A stretch of 64,000 bases of DNA. Source: an uncultured Chloroflexia bacterium. GTDB lineage: Bacteria > Chloroflexota > Anaerolineae > Fen-1058. The stretch is from NCBI GenBank assembly GCA_963844815.1, contig CAWJPR010000018.1, forward strand, positions 462,498 through 526,497. The letters run 5' to 3'. The position numbers and the translations under genes are program-made. A model generated the notes under the pieces. That model had not been told where the DNA came from and searched no databases. It was given only the letters and a program-made list of their open reading frames with translations. Positions 1,566 through 46,383 of the stretch are shown in pieces (the stretch's first letter is position 1; every line of letters starts with the position of its first letter).

Positions 1566-3384
1566 ATGAATCCAACACAACGCGGTTATTGCAACCGTAT
1601 CTTGCGCGTGAATTTGAGCAGCGGCCGCATCTCGACCGAGCCGCTGCCCGAACCCGCCTTGCGCCTGCTGCTGGGGGGCAAGGGCCTGGGCGCCTACTTC
1701 CTGTTCAACGAACAGGCGCCGGGCGTGGAGGCGCTGTCGCCGGACAACAACTTGATCTTCAACGTCGGCCCGCTCACCGGCACGACCGCGCCAACGGCCG
1801 GCCGTTTTGGCAGCACGACGAAGAGCCCGGCCACCGGCACATACTCCGATGCCTATTGCGGCGGCTACTTCGGGCAGACGCTGAAATATGCGGGTTACGA
1901 CGCGCTGATCGTGCAGGGCGCGGCGAGCGAGCCCGTCTCCATCGTGATCGACGACGATCGGGTGGAGGTCCGCTCCGCGCGCGAGTTGTGGGGCACGACG
2001 ATCACCGCTGCCACCGAGCGCCTGTGGCGCGACTTCGGGCGCGATTGGGAATCGCTGGTCATCGGGCCGCCGGGCGAGAAACAAACCAACATCGCCAGCA
2101 TCTTCAACGATACGCGCGCGCTGGCGCGCGGCGGCGTGGGCGCGGTGATGGGCTCGAAGCATCTGAAGGCCGTCGTCGCGCGCGGAACCGGCCGGGTGAC
2201 GGTGGCCGATCGGGCGCGGTTCGATCGCGCGCTGCAGCTCGCCAGCCGGGCCGTGCGCATGTCCAGCGCCATTACTCGCATGAATCAGGAAGGCACGGCC
2301 AACATCCTGGAATTCGTCAATATGGCGGGCGCCCTGCCCACGCGCAACTTTCAGCAGGGGCAGTTTGAAGGCGCGGACGAGATCAGCGGCGAGGCCTGGA
2401 AGGAAAAATCCTGGAAGCAGAATTACGCCTGCTTCGGCTGTCCCATCGCCTGCAGCAAGATCGCGCGCGAGGTCGACGGCAAAGTGCTGGAAGGGCCGGA
2501 ATACGAGACGATCTACGCCATGGGATCGAACTGCGCCATTGCCGATCACGATACAATCATCCGCATGTCGCTGCTGTGCGACGAGTACGGCATCGACACG
2601 ATCAGCGCCGGAGCGATCGCGGCCTTCGTGATGGAGTTGTTCGAGAAAGGCTTCATCCGCGCCAGTGAGCTCGACGGCCTTGAGCCGCGCTTCGGCGATT
2701 GTCGCGCGGCGCTGGCGCTGATCGACAAGCTGGCGAAGGGGGAAGGCTGCGGCGAGTGGTTGAGCGAGGGCGTTGCCAGGATTGCGGCGCGCTATCCCGG
2801 GTCTGACGCGTTTGCCATGCACGTCAAGGGGCTGGAGATGCCGGCCTATCATCCCAACGGCGCGAAGGGCATGGCGCTGGGTTACGCGGTATCCGAGCGC
2901 GGCGCCTGTCACCTGCGCGGCGCGCCGCTGACCGAAGTGCTGGGCGGGGCCGATCCCTTGAGCATTGCCGGCAAGGCGAAGTTGTTCCGCGAGCATCAGT
3001 CCGAGTCGGCCCTGTGGAATAGCGCGGTGCTGTGCTGCTTCCCCGGCTTTGGCATGAGCCTGAAAGAGACTGTGGCAATTGGTCAACGCCGCCACCGGTT
3101 TTGATTATGCGACGGCGCGCGAGTTCGAGTCAGTGGGCGAGCGCATCAATACCCTGGCGCGGCTGTTCAATGTGCGCGAAGGCCTGGCGCGCCGGCAGGA
3201 CACGCTGCCCGCGCGGAATCTCTCGCAGCCGCTGCAAGGCAGCGGGCCGGCCAAAGGCCACGTGGTGGAACTCGATCCGATGCTGGACGAGTATTACGCG
3301 CTGATGGGCTGGGATCAGAACGGCGTGCCGACGCCGGAGCGTTTGAAGGAAATGCAGTTGGATCAACTGCTGACGGCAGCCTAA
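1566..3384 (+). CDS. aor: aldehyde:ferredoxin oxidoreductase (tungsten/molybdopterin AOR family); reading frame broken by an apparent 1-nt insertion near 3066-3070
   Basis: ORF 1566..3104 has AOR N-terminal and central domains (MNPTQRGYCNRILRVNLSSG..., GGKGLGAYFL). The AOR C-terminal domain continues in ORF 3079..3384 (LVNAATGFDY...). The junction 'gcaattggtc' versus an expected 'gcattggtc' indicates one extra base. Confidence 0.85.
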
Positions 3385-4652: not shown

Positions 4653-4678
4653 CGCGTCCGGGTTACATTCTCAATTGC

Positions 4679-4784
4679 GTGTCATTCTGAACGAGCGAAG
4701 CGAGTGAAGAATCTCTACCACAGCTTGCACTTGATGCCAATCAAGTAAGAGATGCTTCGTCCCTGCGGGACTCAGCATGACACT
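4679..4784. repeat. REP/MITE-like imperfect palindrome, family A (GTCATTCTGAACGAGCGAAGCGAGTGAAGAATCTC ... GAGATGCTTCGTCCCTGCGGGACTCAGCATGAC)
   Basis: inverted arms read directly; intercistronic. Confidence 0.7.
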
Positions 4785-4818
4785 CATGATCTAACTTCGT
4801 CAATGCGAAAGAGGAAGC

Positions 4819-5709
4819 ATGAAACTCTATGGCGGTATTGAAGCCGGCGGCACCAAATTTGTCTGCGTGATCGGCAGCGGGCCGGACGACATCGTGGCCG
4901 AGGCGCGCATCGCGACCACGCAGCCCGCGGAAACCATCGGGCACACGATCGACTTCTTCAAGCGGCACGCGCGCGACTACCCGGTCAGCGCGGTCGGCAT
5001 TGGCTCATTCGGGCCGGTCGATCTCGATCGGGCGTCCGCGACTTACGGCTACATCACCACCACGCCCAAGCCGGGCTGGGCGCAGACCGATCTCTGCGGC
5101 GCGCTCCAGCACACCCTGCAGGTCCCGGTCGCCTTTGACACCGACGTGAACGCGGCGGCCTTTGGCGAGCATCACTGGGTCGCGGAGAATCGTTTACTCG
5201 ATCCGCTGCTCTATCTCACCATCGGCACGGGCATCGGGCTGGGCGCCATCGTCAACGGCAAGCCGCTGCACGGCCTGCTGCATCCCGAAGGGGGCCACAT
5301 GTTATTACCGCACGATCGCACGGTCGATCCCTTTGAGGGCGCGTGTCCCTTTCACGGCGACTGCTGGGAGGGCCTGGCGGCCGGGCCCGCCGTGGAAAAA
5401 CGCTGGCAGCAGCGCGGCGAAACCCTGCCGCCCGATCATCCCGCGTGGCAGCTGGAGGCGCACTACGTGGCGCTGGCCGTGGCGAATTTGATCTATTGCT
5501 TCTCGCCGCGGCGGGTGGTCCTGGGCGGCGGCGTGATGCAGCAGCCGGGCATCATCGATCGCGTCCGGGGCGAAGTGCAGCGCTCGATCAACGGCTATCT
5601 GCAATCCGAGCGGATCACGCGCGACATCGATCAACTGATCGTGCCGCCGGGACTGGGCACGCGCTCCGGGGTGCTGGGCGCGATCGCGCTGGCGATTGCG
5701 GCGGAATAA
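4819..5709 (+). CDS. ROK-family sugar kinase (fructokinase/Mak-like)
   Basis: MKLYGGIEAGGTKFVCV... glycine-rich ATP-binding N-terminus; Zn-binding PEGGHMLLPHDRTVDPFEGACPFHGDCWEGLA motif typical of ROK fructokinases. Confidence 0.85.
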   Translation: MKLYGGIEAGGTKFVCVIGSGPDDIVAEARIATTQPAETIGHTIDFFKRHARDYPVSAVGIGSFGPVDLDRASATYGYITTTPKPGWAQTDLCGALQHTLQVPVAFDTDVNAAAFGEHHWVAENRLLDPLLYLTIGTGIGLGAIVNGKPLHGLLHPEGGHMLLPHDRTVDPFEGACPFHGDCWEGLAAGPAVEKRWQQRGETLPPDHPAWQLEAHYVALAVANLIYCFSPRRVVLGGGVMQQPGIIDRVRGEVQRSINGYLQSERITRDIDQLIVPPGLGTRSGVLGAIALAIAAE

Positions 5710-5925
5710 TCGTAGAGGCGTTTTCGTGCAGGGCAAGTTGGCTACTTGCCCTGCTTTTGTTTATAGAAGACGAATCAAGCGTGAACGGCGCAGGCGTCGG
5801 AAGCGAGGCGGCATGGTGCTCCTGATGGGTTGAGGTTATGCGGCGGGGGAGATGATACCATGAAGTGAATCGAACGACGCCGAGAATGTTTTGCTTGCGT
5901 TTGCCCAGCGTATCATTCGAGCATA
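5683..5925 (+). repeat. left copy of an about 240-bp diverged direct repeat (3' end of fructokinase gene + terminator + 5' end of a downstream ORF)
   Basis: About 70-75% identical to 8536-8775, e.g. gcgatcgcgctggcgattgcggcggaataa versus gcgatggcgctggcgattgcagcggaataa. Confidence 0.6.
5731..5769 (+). terminator. rho-independent terminator after the fructokinase gene
   Basis: gcagggcaag-ttggcta-cttgccctgc stem-loop followed by ttttgtttat. Confidence 0.7.
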
Positions 5926-7785
5926 AATTAGAACGCTGTAGTTTGCGCAGTTTGCTTTACTCAGAAATAGACGATGCTAAGTTGGCGGCTGAACATAAAC
6001 TGTGCCGAAAGATTAGTTGTGCTTTTCCATATATGAAAGTAAGTGTAGTACACTCTAGCAAGAGAGTGTCCATCACGGATTCAATATTTTACGATTACCT
6101 TTCAGGAAGGATGTTGTGGGCTATGGCTAAAAGAACTGATAAACACCACCCAGATCAAATGTGGATGTTTGCAGACCTAGTTGAACAGGCTGACACCATC
6201 TCAGACATTCGAGCACGTGAGTCGCAATTGCGTGGTGAGGCCGAGATTCGTATTTCAGCGCCATCCACTCACAACTTCCCACCCTTGGTTTTTCCACAAC
6301 GGTGGGAATTACTAAAAGCAGAAACCGAAAAACGGAATATTCCAATTAAACCACTCATAATACCAGTGCAGCAGGCGCTTATAGAGATTGAAAAAGAACG
6401 TCGCCAAATCCATGAAACTGGAATGGGACGCTTGTCATCATAAGCGGAGTTTGAGGCAGCGGCAAATCGACTTTTCTAAATTCGCTGGATTTGTTTATTG
6501 GGGGCGTGAGCGTACACACTATTACTCTGCGAACAATTGATCGAAATGAATCTGTCGAGGATAAACTTGCGGCACTGCGACGCGAGAAAAGTGAATTCAC
6601 TGTTATTGTGCTTGAAGGCAAAGAGTCGCCCGGGGCCTTGAAGAGCGAAGAAATCGATATTCTCCTAACAACCCTAAACTCAGACTTTCGCCATGGCGCA
6701 GGGGAAGCATACTCTTTTTGTTATTCCAACAACCTCACAATCTGTTGCGCAGGCAAATAGTCAACGTGCAGCTGATATAGGCGGTATGACATTACGATCC
6801 CGCCCATTCTACATTTTCACCGGTCCCCGCCGAAACGAATACGAGCAGACCACTGATAAGATGCTGCGTGCTTTGAATGATTCGCGAGGACTGTTCGACT
6901 ATGGAATTACTCCCGAAACCGCTAAGGGTTTGACTGAATCTTCTGAATCCATGGGACAATTCATAATCGACTGCTATGAAGAAATCAAGCGTCAGCAGGA
7001 CGCACTTAAAACAGACGGCATTTGAGATTAGGCGAAAGAACCTGCATCTTTGGATGGTCTTTTGCTCCTATGAAGAAGACAATCGCCGAAATTACGATAT
7101 CATACGCGCACTGACCATTAGCAACTTTCAATACGCCCAAGTTGGGCGTATGTTGGTTGGTGAATCCAACGAAATCAAATTCTGGGAAGGAAGGCAGTCG
7201 ACCTTTGCATTGGCTGCACAGTATTTAGACTTGCGAGTAACTTACATGCCGATGAAGACTGCAAACGCCATTGTCACTGCATATGGCAATAAGGGAGCTA
7301 ATTGAGAAACTCAAGAAAATCCCTCTAGAAAGTGGCGAGGCGGCGGTCAAACGCGAGGCAGTTGGGACAATTGCTCAAGAGTCTCTCATGGGTACAGCAC
7401 TTGGAGCATTTCTGCGCGGTGAAGAATTCGTTGAGCGTGATATTGTCCGTCGAAACAAACCCCGAGAGAAACAAAACTCTTTTCAAAGAGATAATGAAAA
7501 CCTCAAATGACAAAGACCTCAACGCCCTTGTTGCCCAAACATTGCGTGATGCAGCAGTAAAGACGCCGAACAGAAATGTTTATACTGAGACTAACGATTG
7601 ATGACGGTGGGCACCTTGTTACGGATATCGCTGTAGTAACGCCGACGGACATTTACTGCATAGAGTTAAAGTGGCGCTCATCTTTGCTGGCCGAGAGTGA
7701 AATAACCAGAGAAACTTTGGACAGAGTAAAAGACTTTTCTATTCAACTACCCGAACTGCGAAACCTTCTAGGAAGGCTCGACTAA
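5865..7785 (+). pseudogene. decayed AT-rich gene broken into at least 7 overlapping frame-shifted ORFs; C-terminal piece has a PD-(D/E)XK-nuclease-like motif
   Basis: Consecutive overlapping ORFs 5865-6443, 6491-6760, 6693-7025, 6976-7305, 7271-7510, 7332-7601, 7576-7785 in shifting frames; last piece has TDIAVVTPTDIYCIELKW (D...ELK); GC far below flanks. Confidence 0.5.
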
Positions 7786-7814
7786 GTTATGCGCTGTGTG
7801 AAGTTCGCGCTTAC

Positions 7815-8234
7815 TCAGGGCGCAAACTGCCGCAAGAATTCGTCGGGGGTGATGATTGAAATCCCACGGAAAGGGTTCAAGGTCAATAAATCCTGATCGC
7901 CGCTAATCAGATAAGCAGCCGCGCCGTTGACGGCCAATTCCAAGTACTTGTCATCCTTGGGATCACGGCAGGCATGAATTTCTTCGGCGATTTCAACCAG
8001 CTGGGCCTCACGAACCAGGGCTTCAATGAATCGATCGCGCTCCTGTGGGAGGATATACCGCTCAAACTTCTCGCGGCACAGGACTTCGATCAACTCAGTC
8101 AGCACCGGCAGCGAAATCAAAATGACAGGCTGCTCCAGAGCGAGACGAAAGGCTTGACCCGGCTTCGAGTGCTCAAAGAGCAATGCGCTGATCGCCACAT
8201 TGGCGTCAAAGATGCAGCATGTATCACTCGTCAC
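7815..8234 (-). CDS. vapC: PIN-domain toxin (VapC-like) of a type II toxin-antitoxin pair
   Basis: 139-aa intact ORF with PIN-like acidic residues (IFDANVAISAL..., ...ISGDQDLL); 11-nt overlap with upstream small ORF. Confidence 0.7.
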   Translation of the reverse strand: MTSDTCCIFDANVAISALLFEHSKPGQAFRLALEQPVILISLPVLTELIEVLCREKFERYILPQERDRFIEALVREAQLVEIAEEIHACRDPKDDKYLELAVNGAAAYLISGDQDLLTLNPFRGISIITPDEFLRQFAP

Positions 8235-8451
8235 TGAGCAGATCCTGCAGCATGTGAGGGGTCAAGCCACGCGCCTGTGCATTGCGGCTGATCTCACTCA
8301 TCACGCGCGTGAGGGATTCGGGAGTTCGCGTCGCCTCCAGCAGGCGCAAGCTTAGCAAGGTTTCCAGTTTCCGCCGCATTTCAGGCGTAACCGATGCGAA
8401 GGCGCGAGCCGCTTGTGGATCAACTTGAATTGTGATGGGAATGGTCGTCAT
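8224..8451 (-). CDS. antitoxin partner of the PIN toxin (small, acidic C-terminus)
   Basis: 75-aa ORF immediately upstream of and overlapping the PIN toxin gene; classic TA arrangement. Confidence 0.6.
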   Translation of the reverse strand: MTTIPITIQVDPQAARAFASVTPEMRRKLETLLSLRLLEATRTPESLTRVMSEISRNAQARGLTPHMLQDLLSDE

Positions 8452-8465
8452 TGCGATACCTCCTG

Positions 8466-11400
8466 CTACACTAATTCTACTGTGAATAAAGGACCGTGAC
8501 CAGGGTCTGACGTGGAGAGTATAGCATAAAGTGATAACGGCGCGATGGCGCTGGCGATTGCAGCGGAATAATGGTCAATGCACAAGGATGGGGCAAGTGA
8601 AAGCTTGCTCCGTTTTTGTTGATGGGAAGGTCGAATAAAGTAACGGCGCAGGTGTTGAAAGTGAGGCGCACAGTGCTCCATGGGCCGGGATATGTGCAAC
8701 GAGAAAGATGATGCCATGAAGCAAGATCGAACGGAAAGCAGAGGCATGATTTTCTTGCATCGCAGGCTCTTTCCTTATCGTATATCCCGTTCTTCCTTCT
8801 CCCGTCGCCACCAATCCGCTTGCCGTTTTGCAGTCTCAATATCATCTACGGCCCATTCTCTTATTCTACGCAACGGATAATTAAGGAACTTCTTTGCTAC
8901 TTCGCGCTTAATCCGCGTCGTGAGGCAATATCGCTAGAATACATCTGTCGACTTTGTGCGCCTGCACAAAATTCAGTGAAAACTAAATCATCATCTTCAA
9001 ACTCCTTTAGAACAAATTCGGTCAGCGCAGGAACGCTCACTTCACCGTTAGAATCGACGTTTGGTAATGGAAGATGTCTTGCGATATGCCTTGCGCCTTC
9101 GACTCCCACCGATTTGACCCATTCAATTACTACATCTGTAGGTAATGCTTGGATGAGGCCCTTATATTGTCCTATATAGAAATGCCAGCCTTTCTCGGCA
9201 TCCAACATCACTTGACCGAGTTGCCTCATCACAATAACAGGGTGCTGTTTTGCAACTCCAGCAAGCACTTTAAGTGCCTCATCTCTGATATAGATTCAAT
9301 TCCGTTGCAATCGCGATCTACTGCGATGCGAGCAACAAGGTCAGGATCATCAATATCGAAAGCGACTCAAGAATCCTTACCCACCAAAAAGACTCTGTTC
9401 CGTACCCCCCTCGACCGATCTCTACTACGGCGCCAAATCAAATCTCTTAATTCACCGTATTCAAGCATCTGGTTTACATCGAAATTCTGCGGATCATTTA
9501 ATCGGTATCAGACAATTTCGACAGCAATTCGCATGCAATTTGCGTTGCCGATTTCGGCTTTGGCTACAAGTGGGCTAAGGATGTTACGAATTCCGATGTT
9601 GTAATTTGTGAGATCCAGCGCACATCTGAAACTTTGAAGGTATTCCGCAGGGACTTAGCCCGAATCAACCAACCGCAAAGCTTCGGGCAAGTGAATGCGT
9701 TACTCCTTGTCCTGCTATGGCTAACTCATAAGCTTATAAACGGGTGCTTGTTGCTCCATGGTATCTAGCCAAACATTAACCGGGTCTGCGAGGCCAGGTG
9801 ACTGCCCTATAAAGCCATAAATGTATCCTCTTGCCAATGCTGCAGATTGATAAATGAAGGCTCAAATTCATTATCATGTCTAGCAATGTTCCTTGAATAT
9901 CTTGTCGTCCAAACTCTTCGCCAAGGACAACAGCACTTCGCGCGTCTGGCGAGAATAACCACCCTGACTCATTTTTGAACAAATCGGTGGCACGAAATTC
10001 AGGCGACAGAAAGCGCGTGCGAAGCTTCTGGTCCAATGATTGAGCAGTGCCAATCAGAATGATAGACCAGACCAACGTCTGGATCAATTCATCACGCTCG
10101 AGTAGCCAATCGGCCTGCCGCCGTATATTTTGACAGTCCTGCGCTCGCATAGATGATGATGCAAATTGCCTAAATTCTTCCAGCATTACCATTAAACGCG
10201 TGCGTACCTTGAGCGATATACGATCACTGGCAAATAGTTTCTGAGTACTCCAGATAACCGTCGCCAAGCAGTGACCGAGTATAAGTAATTCCGATATCAT
10301 ATGCCCCGTCACGGATAAATTGCCTGGTATCAGAAGTGAGTTCGATCAGGAAAGAAATGGCAGCATTCACGCAGATCGTACTGCAGCCGTTCGAGCGATC
10401 GTCTCTCATAATTGCGGCTACTGGTGTTCCATCTTGCAAACTCGTGTGTCGAATTCGATCACGAAAAGCCCCTTGTATCGGTGATGTCGATTCACATCAG
10501 ATCGAATTCTTTGCTTTAATCTATCAAAACGCTGCAAGAATGGGACTGATGTACCTGATAGTATGACCGATAAATCTGATGCCATATGGAAGTGGCATTA
10601 TTGCCGATGATTGGTTCAGACTCCGCCAGAGCAAATCGCAGCAAGATACTTTCGGCCTCATCAAAAAATTCCATCAACGCGACAATCCGCTCAGGTACAA
10701 GCATTGGCGTGCGGTCCCGGCTCCATGTTCCTGCGTTATTGTACTCAATTCCTCTTGTTTCGCTGATTCAATAATTCTACGAAGGACTGGCAAGTAGATT
10801 TCTGGTCTAGTATCAATCAAGATAACAAGGCGATCTACTTTGTCAACATCTGTCAAATCAGCAACTCCTAATGCCATCGCCCATTTTCGAAAAAATTCTC
10901 CAACAAGGCGACGCACCCCCTGTGATGCGCTTTGTGCTACGCGCCTTGAGAATGGTTGCAGAAATAGATTGAGGAATAATTCTTAAAAAATCTTCCGGAT
11001 TTCGTTCAAGCCAGCGTCGCCATGCACCAGAAAAAGCGGCTTCTGCAATAATCTCAGATGTGACATAGAAGTATCGACCACGTCTGCCTACAAACCTGGT
11101 ACATCATGAATCTTATAAGGATATCACTTTCTCTGTTGGAATATTTACGATGCTGCATAGGTCCTTAAGTTCACCGGCCATCTCTCCTGCAAAGCCAATT
11201 CGCGTTACTAACGCTAAGGCTTCAATAACGATCAATTCATCATCTGAAAACGTCGGCGCATATAATCACGCAAATCTTGGATCACTGGTACAACGTGACC
11301 CACTTGGTCTATTTCAGCGTGATGAGCAATCCACATTATCCGCGGCGGGCCTCGCAGAGCCACCGAGCCAAAGACGCGTATGCATGTCGCCTGTCTTCTG

Positions 11401-12600
11401 GCACATAAGGAAAGTTCTGTTTAAGTATTTCGCCAAGTAACTCTTTGGGAATTTTTTGAATCCAAATTTCAGGAGCACCGGCTATCGGACGTTCACCTGC
11501 ATTGTCAATTGCTACTATCCGAATGCGATTAGGATACCCTCTCGTGAGATCGATCAACTTTGCTCGAGTATTGAGCGAGCACTCATCAACAACCAGAATT
11601 CCATAAAGAGTTCGGTCGTTTGCAAGTGCGCCATGCAATTGAACGGCAAAGTGCTCGTCATTTGTATAAATGACAAGATTTTCCTTGCGCCGGCATGTTT
11701 CATGCTTCATAAACCATTCGCGTCTTCAACACCCGCTCTCCTGAATTGGCAGTCAATCTGTCCGTCGAAGTGACAGATTGACGTAATGTCTCAGCATTTC
11801 TCTGGAAAACATCCCACTGCGGAGGTGGAACAAAGGTAGGCGTGATCGCAGTTACGTTGGTTTTCCAAATGTCAAGATGAATAGCCTTACCAACGAGGCT
11901 CGGAGAAAAGATGCGCTGGATTAATGCTGGAAGCCGATTTGCCCGGTAAACAAATATCTGCGGTGAGTATAACATAAACCTAGAGCGCAACAGCGATTTA
12001 TGCTCTGCACACCTTGCTCAAGAACTCTCTCCCATTCATCTACTTTATTTGAGAGGCTATCACAAATACAAAATCGGTAGGCATATCCATTTAAAACACA
12101 CTCTCGGGAGTAGCGTTTGTTAACCTCTTCGAGTAGACTTTCCTTCAGATACATCTCCGGCGTCTGTTGCCTTAAACTGCCATATAGTTCTTTCCATCAT
12201 CCAACCTATAGGATCATCGACAATGCCTTGTTCGACAAGCGTATCAACGCCGCCATCCTGGATATTCACACGTAGATTGGTATGGATGCTCGCTTGCGGC
12301 AGATTGCTTACAGCAACTTGAGATCGAATAATGCTGTCAACTAATTCCGTAGAATCGATCACCGCCGGGTGTTCGTCCTAAATGAATAACATCATGGGCA
12401 TTTATAGTCCACATGTAACACTCCCTCTTCGATCGCTTTGCCAGCACATACAATCTATTTGGTCTGAGTGTAATTTGCTCAAAATGCCAGATTGTTCGAG
12501 TCTTGTAGCATCTGAGGATTAGTATAAGCATAAAGAGAATATAACGATCAACAGCCGCTGCATGCAATTCATGCTGTTGAGTCCTCGCGCACAGTGCCAT
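8466..12600 (-). pseudogene. heavily decayed AT-rich gene(s) on the minus strand (many frameshifts and stops); one fragment has a DExH-like Walker-B-like motif (ILVVDECS)
   Basis: Chain of short overlapping minus-strand ORFs (12337-12600, 12120-12362, 11921-12154, 11700-11990, 11336-11710, 10674-10916, 10516-10704, 10224-10439, 9776-10312, 8897-9268, 8466-8845) in changing frames; low GC. Confidence 0.45.
8536..8775 (+). repeat. right copy of the about 240-bp diverged direct repeat (second, non-functional copy of the fructokinase 3' end ...GAMALAIAAE-stop, hairpin, ORF start MKQDRTESRGM...)
   Basis: aligned by eye with 5683-5925. Confidence 0.6.
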
Positions 12601-12644
12601 CGGCGCTTCCCCGGCGTTGACGAACAGACGCGGGGCAGGGCGGT

Positions 12645-12777
12645 GAGACCTCGGAGGTTTTCATCAGCAGGCAGGCACGGCTCGATCATCGATCAGGTTG
12701 ATGGGCAGGCAATGACAGAAAACCGATAACTCCACGGTTGGGGGCGCTGCGCGAAACCTCCGAGGTCTTGATCAGTT
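12645..12777. repeat. two copies of a 23-26 nt motif with a central palindrome (GAGACCTCGGAGGTTTTCATCAGC / GAAACCTCCGAGGTCTTGATCAG) at the right edge of the AT-rich island
   Basis: 12645-12670 and 12753-12777; read directly. Confidence 0.5.
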
Positions 12778-12846: not shown

Positions 12847-13473
12847 CTAATTAGCCATCAATAGACAAGCGGAACCAGTTTCTTGTACTCTCTGCCGATA
12901 CGCGCGGTACGGCTCGCCGTAGGCCTGTTGCAGCCCTGCTTCCTCGACCGGGATCAATCCGCTGAGCAGCACCACGTAGATGACGAACACGGCCAGGAAA
13001 GCCCACGATTGCAGCAGGCAAGCCAATCCCAGCGAGATGCACAAGACCGCCGAGTACATCGGATGCCTGACCAGCTTGTACGGTCCGACGATGGTCAGCT
13101 GATCGGTCTTCCGCGGGGCGTTTCCGCCTAACTGATACCTGCGTCCCAGGCAGATCAATGCCCACGCCATGAGCAGATAACCGATCACCGTCAACACCAG
13201 GCCGGCGATCTCCAACGCCTGCGCGAGCCATGGCGCAGTCACGGCCATGTGCGTCGGATCGATGGCCCCGGCGTTCCCGGTGATCAGCAGGATGGCGGCC
13301 AGCGGATTCACTACGAGCAGGAAGAAGAGATTGAAACTGTTCGTGAGCCGCAGCAAGCGGCTGCCGGTGGGCTTCTCAATAATGGAACCGGTCGCCAGTT
13401 GCTTGACGACCACCAACATCCCCAGCAGGACCAGCAGCACGATTCCAATGGTCTTTTGATCGAGCAGGTACAT
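12847..13473 (-). CDS. isoprenylcysteine carboxyl methyltransferase (ICMT)/phospholipid methyltransferase family membrane protein
   Basis: Multiple TM helices; VGPYKLVRHPMYSA motif typical of the ICMT/PEMT family; start placed at MYLLDQ (alternative upstream start at 13518). Confidence 0.75.
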   Translation of the reverse strand: MYLLDQKTIGIVLLVLLGMLVVVKQLATGSIIEKPTGSRLLRLTNSFNLFFLLVVNPLAAILLITGNAGAIDPTHMAVTAPWLAQALEIAGLVLTVIGYLLMAWALICLGRRYQLGGNAPRKTDQLTIVGPYKLVRHPMYSAVLCISLGLACLLQSWAFLAVFVIYVVLLSGLIPVEEAGLQQAYGEPYRAYRQRVQETGSACLLMAN

Positions 13474-13489
13474 CGCTGATTTCTCCTTT

Positions 13490-14266
13490 TCAAGCCACGT
13501 CACTACCGCGCGTTGCACGCCTACGCGAGTCCCCGAAGCGAAGCGGAGTGGGAGTGGGTGCGCGTGTGCCCGAGTGCCTGCGAAGCGTGTCGGGCATCCA
13601 GTTTGACCGGTTTGCTGGATTCCCGCTTAAAGCACGTGGGCACATGCGGTGTGACGATTGCGCTCCCGTGACGACGGCGTAAAATGCCCTAGCACCAAAA
13701 TCATCCGCGTGTAGGCGCAGCCGCAGAACGCAAGCCATAGTCACAACTGCTCCCATGACAGCGCCGTAGACGAGGTGCATCACCACGGAAATGCCAAACC
13801 AGAGCGCCGTCGCAGCAGCCGTCATACTTAATACGAAGGTCGCCGTTGCCAGCAGCGGCAGGCTCAGCACTTCGACGTATAGGACGCCCAGCCCCACACC
13901 TTTCTTGATCGAATCCAGCCGGAAGGCATCAATCCGCAAGACGAGTGCGACGAAAGTGACGCCGAGGGCAAGGCCCAAGAGATAGAACACCACCATCCCC
14001 AAAGGCGCGCCCCCGGCCAGTTTGATGCCCAGCATTGCAAAGAAACTCGCCGCGGCATCGCCGATGATCGAGAAGGAAATGCTCGCCGGCTGGCCCATGA
14101 CCAGGAAAATGCCAACCCCAAACACATGCATCGCGATCGTTCCTGCCAGACCTCCAGCTAACCCGACGATGATGTCTCTGGTGAAGATACCGCTGCTCCG
14201 CTGACGTTCCACACGCCGCTGAGATCCTCTGTCGATTCCGAGTGTCTGTCGCTTGCGCAGATGCAT
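13490..14266 (-). CDS. hypothetical integral membrane protein
   Basis: 258-aa ORF with several hydrophobic helices (IIVGLAGGLAGTIAMHVFGVGIFLVMG...); the C-terminal tail may be read-through. Confidence 0.55.
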   Translation of the reverse strand: MHLRKRQTLGIDRGSQRRVERQRSSGIFTRDIIVGLAGGLAGTIAMHVFGVGIFLVMGQPASISFSIIGDAAASFFAMLGIKLAGGAPLGMVVFYLLGLALGVTFVALVLRIDAFRLDSIKKGVGLGVLYVEVLSLPLLATATFVLSMTAAATALWFGISVVMHLVYGAVMGAVVTMACVLRLRLHADDFGARAFYAVVTGAQSSHRMCPRALSGNPANRSNWMPDTLRRHSGTRAPTPTPLRFGDSRRRATRGSDVA

Positions 14267-16120: not shown

Positions 16121-16639
16121 TCAAAGTTCTTTGTAGAAGATCACCGTTGTCCACAGCCTGCCATCCGGGAAACTGGCATAGTTGGGAATCTCGCCGACCC
16201 GCACGTAACCGAGTTTCAAATAGAGTTGCTCGGCCAGTTCGCCTTCGATCGTATCCAGCACCAGCAAAGTAAGGTCGCGTTGTCGCGCCTCGTGCTCGAT
16301 CGCCTCCATCAAGCGGCGGCCCAGGCCGCGATTGCGATGGCGGCTGTGAACGAGCAGCTTCTGCACCTCGGCGCGATGGCGGCCGGTTTCCTTCTGGCCC
16401 AGCGACAACTGCACCGAACCGGCCACTGCGCCGCTCTCCGTGGTGGCGACGAGTATCACGCGATACGGTGATTCAACCTCGCGCAGCACGCCCTGCCAGT
16501 AAGCCTCGGCGGTTTCGCGCTTTAGCGGCGAGAGGAAGCCCACCGATGCGCCGCCCTCGACGGAATCACGGAGGAGATCGATCAGACCTTCGCGCACGGC
16601 GTAAGCCGGTGGAAGCGCCAATCGTTGTAGAGTGAACAT
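16121..16639 (-). CDS. GNAT-family N-acetyltransferase
   Basis: Acetyl-CoA binding motif HSRHRNRGLGRRLMEAIEHEAR (Q/RxxGxG/A). Confidence 0.8.
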   Translation of the reverse strand: MFTLQRLALPPAYAVREGLIDLLRDSVEGGASVGFLSPLKRETAEAYWQGVLREVESPYRVILVATTESGAVAGSVQLSLGQKETGRHRAEVQKLLVHSRHRNRGLGRRLMEAIEHEARQRDLTLLVLDTIEGELAEQLYLKLGYVRVGEIPNYASFPDGRLWTTVIFYKEL

Positions 16640-16757
16640 ACCGTCTGCCTGTTGTAAGATAACAAAATCGTAGGGGCGAGACCGCAGATGCCGCGCTGTC
16701 GGCGGCACACCTCGCCCCTACGATTACATCGGCTTCCGTCCAGTCAACACATCGGAC

Positions 16758-20379: not shown

Positions 20380-20790
20380 CGGGAAAAGTCGAGAGGTGCG
20401 TATTTCATTACCATCGTCACTTACCAGCGCGAGTTGTTATTCGACGATCCCGTATTTCGCAAGATTGTCGAGACATTCTGGCAGCGCATTCCGCAACACA
20501 TGCCGCGCATAAAGTTGGACATTTTCATCATGATGCCCAATCACCTTCACGGCATCCTATGGCTGATCAATGCTGGTCTTGGCGCTCCAGCGCGTGACAC
20601 TATTGCTTCAACTCAACCTCCAATACACCATCGACAATCCGGCCAATTGGGCGCGGGACACGGAAAACCCCGATCGATCTGTGTAGGGGCGAGGCATTCG
20701 CACCACGATTCCCGTTGATTCACCTCACCGCCATGGCAGCGATGCTGATCGACATTCCCCTCTTGGCGAATGCCTCGCCCCTACCCTCCC
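20380..20790 (+). mobile_element. decayed IS200/IS605-family (Y1 HUH, RAYT-like) transposase remnant with a perfect 19-bp inverted repeat at its 3' side
   Basis: GAYFITIVTYQRELLFDDP... and HUH motif DIFIMMPNHLHGILWL; no start codon and a degenerate C-terminus; IR GTAGGGGCGAGGCATTCGC (20683-20701) / GCGAATGCCTCGCCCCTAC (20768-20786). Confidence 0.55.
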
Positions 20791-20898
20791 CTGGCAAGTC
20801 AGACAGAAGTCAGCGAACGGCGTACTTCCCTGTCATCCATTCACAGCGAAACAGTAGTATAGTAGGCGTATTCGATGATTAAGAGCAGGAGGCACATC

Positions 20899-32095: not shown

Positions 32096-32122
32096 TGTAG
32101 CCTCCCTTAAACTTGGTATGTC

Positions 32123-32250
32123 GTCATTGCACGCAGCATCCTGAGCGCAGCGGAGTCGAAGGATGCGAAGGATGCGACACTTTTTGCGACGAAGCGATCG
32201 CCTACAGTTACGATCGAGATTGCTTCGCAGAAAACGCTCCTCGCAATGAC
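32123..32250. repeat. REP/MITE-like composite palindrome, family A (GTCATTGCACGCAGCATCC... ...GATTGCTTCGCAG..CTCCTCGCAATGAC)
   Basis: intercistronic between the permease and MetE-like genes. Confidence 0.7.
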
Positions 32251-46297: not shown

Positions 46298-46383
46298 GTC
46301 ATTGCGAGCCGCGCAGCAGCGAAGCAATCTCCCGCGCAAGTCATGAGATTGCGTCGTCGGCCTGTGGCCTCCTCGCAATGACT
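46298..46383. repeat. REP/MITE-like palindrome, family A (GTCATTGCGAGCCGCGCAGCAGCGAAGCAATCTC ... GAGATTGCGTCGTCGGCCTGTGGCCTCCTCGCAATGAC)
   Basis: intercistronic between the isomerase and glucokinase genes. Confidence 0.75.

Follow-up and report, generated by a model that had tools for sequence, protein, structure and literature searches.

Displaced fructokinase ends mark a gene-insertion hotspot in an uncultured Chloroflexota lineage

We analysed a stretch of 64,000 nucleotides (nt), hereafter the window, from an uncultured Chloroflexia bacterium (assembly GCA_963844815.1, contig CAWJPR010000018.1, positions 462,498–526,497), in which the 3' end of a fructokinase gene, its transcription terminator and a short piece of downstream DNA (together, the module) recur 2.9 kb further on, beyond a decayed gene (gene A) and an intact PIN-domain toxin-antitoxin (TA) pair. 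The two copies are best explained as two alleles of native DNA downstream of fructokinase, made up of the gene's tail, its terminator and a relic of the 5' end of a neighbouring gene, and recombination-driven insertion of a fragment from a sister lineage is the explanation of the locus that we favour, at a probability of about 0.55. Comparison with related Thermoflexales/Anaerolineae contigs, designated by L numbers, placed the repeat at the convergent junction between fructokinase and a GNAT acetyltransferase gene, which is a gene-insertion hotspot in the Thermoflexales clade.

Local (Smith-Waterman) alignment of window positions 5677–5898 (copy 1) with 8539–8758 (copy 2) gave 231 columns with 167 identities and 20 gap columns, corresponding to 72% identity, or 79% when gaps were left out. 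The score of 120 lay about 46 standard deviations above those of 200 dinucleotide-preserving shuffles (22.2 ± 2.1, maximum 29), blastn between the copies returned E = 3e-19, and collinear seed blocks were found at offsets of 2862, 2858 and 2856, with a gapless stretch around the fructokinase stop codon in which 34 of 37 nt were identical. An earlier reading made from the letters of the window (the sequence-only reading) had placed a diverged repeat of 70–75% identity at 5683–5925 and 8536–8775; this repeat is real, at slightly shifted limits, and the statistical failure that would have spoken against it did not occur. Each copy comprises the last 11 fructokinase codons with the stop (GAIALAIAAE-stop in copy 1, GAMALAIAAE-stop in copy 2), a terminator hairpin and then about 135 nt of distal DNA. 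As that reading had also proposed, alignment and folding placed the fructokinase C-terminus and the hairpin in both copies, the latter being a GC-rich stem with a T-run directly 3' of the stop codon, i.e. an intrinsic terminator (−22.5 kcal/mol, z = −3.3 in copy 1; −24.3 kcal/mol, z = −4.9 in copy 2). The distal piece had been taken for about 20 codons of a following open reading frame (ORF), and here the proposal had to be dropped: no gene is present, the homology of gene A starts at its ATG at 6123, and in L101 the counterpart of the distal piece is where a gene on the minus strand has its promoter and first codons.

The idea that the similarity reflects chance, a small dispersed repeat or a structured RNA is hardly credible. 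Part of the module (5770–5866) does occur elsewhere in L002 and L101, as a dispersed repeat might, but the L101 occurrence is the ordinary promoter and 5' end of a gene, the score is far beyond that of any shuffle, and the 64 kb hold only two copies, each of them collinear with the tail of the gene; blastn found no third copy in the window, including where the low-GC tract described below ends on its far side. No Rfam family was recovered in the whole window at the gathering threshold or in 5.6–9.0 kb under permissive settings, and a scan for tRNA genes found none, so that no tRNA or non-coding RNA target is present at the locus. For the distal piece of copy 2, folding was no stronger than in shuffles (z = −0.4), and a structured RNA there was rejected.

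The module itself is native chromosomal DNA rather than a site brought in by an element. The same terminator follows the intact fructokinase in L106, L087, L103 and L107, together with the distal piece wherever the contigs reach that far. The window fructokinase is 84–97% identical to relatives with the native tail A(M/L/I)ALAIAAE-stop; the identity is 97% at the protein level to L106 and 96–100% at the nucleotide level to L087; …AIAAE-stop is the normal tail in the subclade of at least 87% identity, and more distant relatives end in …AIQAAR-stop and similar tails. The distal piece (window about 5766–5882) is homologous to L101 14400–14520 (79% identity, E = 2e-17) and also to L002 8391–8456. 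Its counterpart in L101 is the promoter region and first nine or so codons (MRRSRLIR…) of a minus-strand PQQ-repeat gene, and the minus strand of copy 1 still reads …RRSRLIRLL-stop; the distal piece is a relic of the 5' region of this neighbouring gene. The displaced remnants group together with the native alleles found in sister lineages. Homology ends raggedly across alleles: on its left side 11, 18, about 25, 30 and at least 61 codons ahead of the stop, and on its right side at alignment columns of about 75, 101, 109, 114, 129, 147 and 232. Comparison of L087 with window 4819–5823 also showed that the gene is 96–100% identical and the DNA just after the stop only about 80%, a sudden drop which suggests that even very close relatives have recombined at the end of the gene.

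The two window copies are reciprocal chimeras, in the pattern of a single reciprocal crossover between a resident and an incoming allele. In the terminator block, copy 1 is 51–66% identical to the clade alleles and copy 2 is 71–86% identical (63% to L103); in the distal block the relation is reversed, with 75–79% for copy 1 and 60–64% for copy 2. Not counted in these block-wise values are L087, the orthologue of copy 1, and, in the distal block, L107 with its short overlap. Sites were taken as informative if the two copies disagreed and one of them matched the clade consensus; the consensus went with copy 2 at 18 of 23 such sites on the left side of the breakpoint, and with copy 1 at 24 of 29 on the right side. 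The breakpoint falls at alignment columns 92–96, at the end of the T-run (window about 5764 and 8624), with a maximum chi-square of 19.4 that was reached in none of 10,000 permutations (P < 1e-4). This reciprocity argues against a one-sided linear event of homology-facilitated illegitimate recombination (HFIR) as the source of the window insertion. It also argues against a simple duplication in situ, in which unequal crossing-over or replication slippage would have doubled the fructokinase end, the copies would have diverged and unrelated cargo would have entered between them; copies made in this way would be equally distant from outgroups along their length, whereas each is close to the clade alleles in just one of the blocks and far from them in the other. 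Both copies do share the subclade-specific AIAAE tail, and no donor has been identified, as such a duplication would have it, but the 28% divergence between the copies contrasts with the 98% identity of the fructokinase to that of L087, and we regard this origin as quite improbable.

The window belongs to a Thermoflexales/Anaerolineae genome (Chloroflexota), and its synteny with every relative stops at the fructokinase stop codon. L101 and L102, whose fructokinases are 89–90% identical to that of the window and end in …ALAIAAE-stop, have an empty site in which the convergent GNAT gene stops 3 nt beyond the fructokinase stop codon. Because the two genes abut in this compact state, insertions that spare both would tend to carry a spare gene end. 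L105 has a nearly empty site, with a hairpin spacer of about 100 nt between the two stops; this spacer (3054–3150) is 87% identical to window 12646–12721, at the right edge of the low-GC tract, where the window has a spacer of about 135 nt that folds at −55.7 kcal/mol (z = −2.7). The right arm of this hairpin adjoins GNAT in L084 (reverse strand, about 770–815). The sequence-only reading had suggested looking in related genomes for an empty site: such sites exist in L101, L102 and L105, but the predicted form, with fructokinase followed directly by the sequence on the 8.7-kb side, was not found. The absence of size polymorphism in relatives, which would have told against an insertion, did not occur either, size polymorphism being abundant.

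The occupied sites of relatives carry a 1547-aa glycosidase-like gene (L002), a TetR gene (L103/L104), an HsdR-like DEAD/DEAH helicase read by eye from the translation (L107, 2001–2960), an N6/N4 DNA methylase with a GH25 lysozyme (L004, 11570–13886), or small ORFs without assigned function followed by leu genes (L001). Displaced fructokinase ends, one in the window, were found twice in L085 and once each in L083, L084 and L107, with different cargo. L083 has an Imm5-like gene (cargo at 1–700) and a remnant of about 25 codons that is joined directly to a methyltransferase; in L084, at least 61 codons of fructokinase remain, followed by a small ORF without assigned function and by GNAT. The array of L085 runs from fructokinase (tail …LALEAK-stop) through a YdeI/OmdA gene, remnant 2 (30 fructokinase codons, the terminator and part of the distal piece), a PIN/Phd pair, an antitoxin of the window type and remnant 3 to a methyltransferase. 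Remnant 3, which is the orthologue of copy 2, holds 18 codons and half a terminator and is followed directly by that methyltransferase, the counterpart of window 12847; the window methyltransferase is 95% identical to L085 3005–3653 and 91% to L083 893–1187. The window and L085 share orthologous versions of the antitoxin, of its promoter side and of the remnant beside it, at 85% identity (near the 87% of fructokinase), with 21 nt lost from the window at the antitoxin/remnant boundary relative to L085; as the junction is conserved at this level, it is older than the split between the two lineages. Gene B, the second decayed gene of the window, is absent from L085 and L083.

In L085 (2600–2834, compared with window 8224–8260) the antitoxin stands without its PIN toxin, its C-terminus differs from about 12 residues before the end, and a different PIN/Phd pair directly adjoins it; this changed C-terminus and new neighbour point to a recombination joint inside the antitoxin gene. 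The different remnant limits and cargo of relatives imply repeated independent events, a further point against duplication in situ, and the fructokinase 3' flank acts as a hotspot for defence and competition islands across the clade.

The sequence-only reading had asked whether the repeats are fossil integration junctions, and the part of this that stands is that they are insertion junctions, as shown by the empty sites, the size polymorphism and the chimeras of single-crossover type; an integrase-type element finds no such backing. Its proposal was that an integrative element had brought its own copy of the gene end, but the module is native in L106, L087, L103 and L107, the crossover lies after the terminator, so that the incoming DNA needed no gene end and yet brings 11–18 fructokinase codons, the limits are ragged and no recombinase occurs in the alleles examined. 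In its fuller form, which is the main rival to the explanation favoured here, one or more dedicated elements with a site-specific core just after the fructokinase terminator would have accreted in tandem and later lost their integrase. Much of the evidence is compatible with this: direct repeats flank foreign low-GC cargo, relatives have empty sites, up to three module copies stand in tandem, the copies are reciprocally chimeric with a sharp breakpoint, homology ends about 5–35 columns to the right of this breakpoint in L103, L083, L084 and L107, and the cargo (TA pairs, defence genes, an immunity protein) is typical of islands. However, no recombinase was found in the window tract or in L085, L083, L084, L002, L001, L004 and L107, seven alleles followed from end to end or for 10 kb downstream. 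The supposed attP side bears 11 to at least 61 fructokinase codons and the terminator, which would be needless if the crossover lay downstream, and it is a native sister-lineage allele. Both ends of the repeat are ragged, no third copy closes the low-GC tract on its far side, and no viral or proviral attP with the module was found, one scan giving a chance match and another coming back empty. Segments of identity at att sites are usually far shorter than the 220 to more than 370 nt of homeologous repeat seen here. Thus, of four hallmarks of integrase-type islands, the locus shows direct repeats around DNA that the empty sites of relatives do not have, and lacks a recombinase, a distinct attP and a fixed crossover core: limits vary among alleles, and the window pair has one significant breakpoint, without comparable other events. 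We therefore consider such elements doubtful as the source of the locus. Three features of 3'-end displacement are present, namely an intact anchor gene followed by orphaned 3' fragments with varied cargo, the origin of these fragments as sister-lineage alleles of the native gene end, and a mosaic structure at the anchor.

Under the favoured explanation, insertion of a sister-lineage fragment by recombination, the incoming piece of about 2.9 kb would have carried some 18 codons before the fructokinase stop, the module, gene A and the PIN pair with its promoter. This piece would have circularised or otherwise become a substrate for a single crossover, and one recombination with the resident module just after the terminator would have inserted the cargo. 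The resident chromosome would already have had gene B after its module, gene A presumably arriving later than gene B. Fructokinase would have kept its own tail and terminator, and the incoming tail and terminator would have become the displaced copy 2, 2.9 kb downstream and before gene B; copy 1 would be resident on the left and incoming on the right, and copy 2 incoming on the left and resident on the right. The event would predate the split from the L085 lineage, in which later rounds would have added remnants and cargo, and similar events with joints at other positions would have built the arrays in L085, L083, L084 and L107. Genes A and B would have decayed afterwards, the TA pair remaining intact. 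We infer that host homologous or illegitimate recombination, not a dedicated site-specific enzyme, did the joining.

Several points weigh against this explanation. Neither the donor (fructokinase, module, gene A and PIN pair) nor the allele before insertion (fructokinase, module and gene B) was found among the contigs compared, most of which are short metagenome fragments of uncertain relatedness. The breakpoint falls on the seam where the terminator meets the PQQ relic, and separate histories of the two halves could mimic a crossover. The alleles are now 58–70% identical around the breakpoint, a poor substrate for RecA unless much of this divergence is more recent. Reciprocal chimeras would be expected to the same degree from a site-specific integrase with its crossover just after the terminator, and the arrival of gene B and of the block at 12.85–16.1 kb, neither with remnants, is left unexplained. 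The sharp breakpoint right after the T-run, and the homology of several alleles ending within about 5–35 columns, are the observations behind one more conceivable mechanism, a recombination system encoded in trans that would recognise the terminator hairpin and make the fructokinase end an integron-like landing pad for single-gene defence and TA cassettes in uncultivated Chloroflexi. The locus has no integrase, and the module hairpin is an intrinsic terminator rather than an attC-type palindrome, unlike an integron; we hold this mechanism to be very unlikely.

The features of the locus are listed in Table 1.

Table 1. Features of the fructokinase–GNAT region of the window (window coordinates).
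Feature	Position	Strand	Remarks
Fructokinase, anchor gene, intact	4819–5709	+	Pfam ROK, E = 1e-61
Module copy 1, on the live gene	5677–5898	+	Tail 5677–5709; terminator 5728–5754, T-run to about 5764; distal piece about 5766–5898
Pseudogene A, P-loop NTPase with NERD/PD-(D/E)XK-like C-terminus	6123–7782	+	GC 46%; joined translation matches P0001
PIN_3-domain toxin, intact ORF	7815–8234	−	Pfam PIN_3, E = 1e-15
75-aa putative antitoxin, intact ORF	8224–8451	−	Upstream of the PIN_3 toxin, 11-nt overlap
Module copy 2, displaced remnant	8539–8758	+	Tail 8539–8571; hairpin about 8582–8619; distal piece about 8626–8758
Pseudogene B, STAND-like ATPase of about 1230 aa	8781–12414	−	GC 46%; related to PD-Lambda-4_A defence protein
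Hairpin spacer	12640–12775		Native fructokinase–GNAT intergenic element; right edge of the inserted tract
PEMT/ICMT-family methyltransferase	12847–13518	−	Pfam PEMT; first host-GC gene to the right
GNAT acetyltransferase	16121–16708	−	Pfam Acetyltransf_1; 10.4 kb from fructokinase

The GC content is 60–67% in the host flanks and falls to 42–49% between about 5.9 and 12.6 kb, with intermediate values (50–58%) within this tract only in the TA pair and copy 2. Copy 2 thus lies in the middle of a foreign tract of about 6.7 kb, between pseudogenes A and B, and the tract runs about 4 kb past it. This corrects the earlier claim that the repeats bracket the TA-containing segment: they do not enclose all of the foreign DNA, the low-GC DNA extending from copy 2 to about 12.6 kb. 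The interior between the repeats had been described as a multi-frameshifted PD-(D/E)XK-like gene and an intact PIN toxin/antitoxin pair without an integrase, with which our family scans and frame analysis agree. The hairpin spacer has 19-nt inverted arms (GACCTCGGAGGTTTTCATC … GATCAAAACCTCCGAGGTC) and is separated from GNAT in the window by the block at 12.85–16.1 kb, which holds the methyltransferase, a DUF6789 gene, genes for small membrane proteins and an ECF sigma factor gene. Since the spacer is native to the fructokinase–GNAT junction and yet stands apart from GNAT here, this block also looks inserted.

Pfam searches with single fragments of genes A and B were uninformative, and joined translations were used instead. 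Joined together, the fragments of gene A match the intact Anaerolineae protein P0001 (553 aa) over the full length with 76% identity, with at least four frame changes by tblastn. The family has no Pfam model; it has a Walker-A P-loop and weak Pfam matches only (RsgA_GTPase, NERD). The homologues (P0001–P0045; e.g. in L088, L091 and L095) are proteins of about 550 aa, solitary and in unrelated contexts, from Anaerolineae and other phyla; the genes are low in GC (40% in hosts of 53–59%), some members have pentapeptide-repeat extensions, and JGI names some of them cytosine-5 methyltransferase. We regard the family as a candidate single-gene defence or restriction protein. DNA homology of gene A to relatives ends at the limits of the coding sequence, and the unrelated contexts and lack of flanking repeats rule out that gene A is part of a self-contained mobile unit; since its homologues elsewhere are solitary and without such repeats, the repeat is a feature of the locus rather than of its cargo. 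A PIN pair does stand beside gene A homologues in L091–L094, but it is only 30% identical to the window pair and differs in orientation.

The window pair has the make-up of a type II TA system, with a PIN-domain toxin and a small overlapping upstream partner, both ORFs being intact. The 75-aa partner had no match in Pfam or PADLOC, including to any recognised antitoxin family, and its position suggests that it acts as the antitoxin; a promoter-like site lies at 8502–8474, on the upstream side of its gene. Exact-protein look-ups for the window fructokinase and the PIN toxin returned no record. The joined translation of pseudogene B matches 110 proteins of about 1230 aa, the best being P0166 (39% identity), with at least nine frame changes, and the gene ends about 20 nt from copy 2. 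P0166, an intact homologue, matches the PADLOC model PD-Lambda-4_A (E = 1e-15). P0166 and its roughly 110 homologues come from Chloroflexi, Bacillus, cyanobacteria, Planctomycetes and Acidobacteria, with almost no Pfam annotation.

Some observations concern other parts of the window. A fragment at about 20440–20830, upstream of the gene at 20.8 kb, encodes 'DIFIMMPNHLHGILWL', a Y1 transposase motif of the IS200/RAYT-like type, and is followed by REP-like palindromes (GTAGGGGCGAGGCATTCGC…GCGAATGCCTCGCCCCTAC); similar palindromes (GTAGGGGCGAG…CTCGCCCCTAC) lie upstream of GNAT (window about 16670–16730) and in relatives (L101, about 11480–11520 and about 14500), and a REP/RAYT system in these genomes is possible. 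An aldehyde:ferredoxin oxidoreductase ORF (1566–3104) matches only positions 8–280 of the 385-position AFOR_C model and is followed by a 101-aa ORF in another frame (3079–3384), so that either a frameshift in the gene or a fault in the assembly may lie behind 1566–3384. Between the DUF4432 gene and fructokinase (window about 4655–4795), the intergenic DNA of L087 gave short matches at L001 9881–9917, 15179–15215 and 18707–18784, and two weak matches elsewhere in the window (46320–46382 and 32122–32168), which suggests a small dispersed repeat. A 28-mer from this DNA that was tested for such a repeat occurs once in the window, and that candidate was rejected.

The locus is a further example, in an uncultivated lineage, of a known recombination process, and in itself an ordinary outcome of it. 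Its value lies in the clear, datable record that it gives of how accessory and defence genes are gained without mobile-element machinery in a poorly studied group. A further lesson is that integrase activity need not lie behind long, diverged att-like repeats at the ends of genes, which calls for caution in the automated calling of island and prophage boundaries.

The closest counterparts are arrays built by 3'-end displacement. Orphan C-terminal tips of Rhs proteins and orphan modules of contact-dependent growth inhibition (CDI) systems reportedly form such displacement arrays (Jackson 2009; Poole 2011). Like the present locus, the arrays of Rhs, CDI and T6SS (type VI secretion) systems keep the anchor gene intact, while an incoming homologous end with new genes pushes the old 3' end downstream; repetition yields strings of orphaned 3' fragments with different cargo, and no integrase is involved. 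The T6SS effector-immunity arrays of V. cholerae and Rhs C-terminal displacement have been attributed to the same process, with HFIR as the proposed mechanism (Kirchberger 2017, PMC5361080). Unlike in those systems, the present anchor encodes a housekeeping sugar kinase, and because its tail is no polymorphic toxin, selection for tail diversity is absent; the repeat is mostly non-coding, the cargo consists of TA and defence genes rather than cognate immunity genes, and the window event resembles a reciprocal single crossover, not one-sided HFIR.

HFIR itself has been described (de Vries & Wackernagel 2002; Prudhomme 2002; Meier & Wackernagel 2003; all as cited in PMC5361080). In HFIR and in Campbell-type integration, as here, foreign DNA is added beside a homologous anchor with variable joints, and the direct repeats left by Campbell-type integration are, like ours, reciprocal chimeras of resident and incoming alleles. 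In contrast to the experimental cases, the present locus is known from its sequence, and its repeats are 58–79% identical, a high divergence for RecA.

Integrase-less derivatives flanked by att sites are known as cis-mobilizable elements (CIMEs), for instance at the fda locus of Streptococcus thermophilus. The locus resembles integrase islands and CIMEs in that direct repeats with a gene 3' end flank the cargo, units stand in tandem arrays, empty sites exist and some units have no recombination module. It differs from them in having no integrase in any allele and repeats that are long, homeologous, ragged and native, with a crossover beyond both gene and terminator, where no mimic of the gene end is needed. 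Finally, hotspots of horizontal gene transfer and defence islands are said to be often flanked by core genes (Oliveira et al. 2017); as in these, a site between two conserved genes holds varied accessory and defence genes here, many without mobility genes. Unlike such hotspots in general, the present one leaves a visible trail of displaced anchor-gene ends, and because each round leaves behind one displaced end of the housekeeping gene, the order of events can be read from the array.

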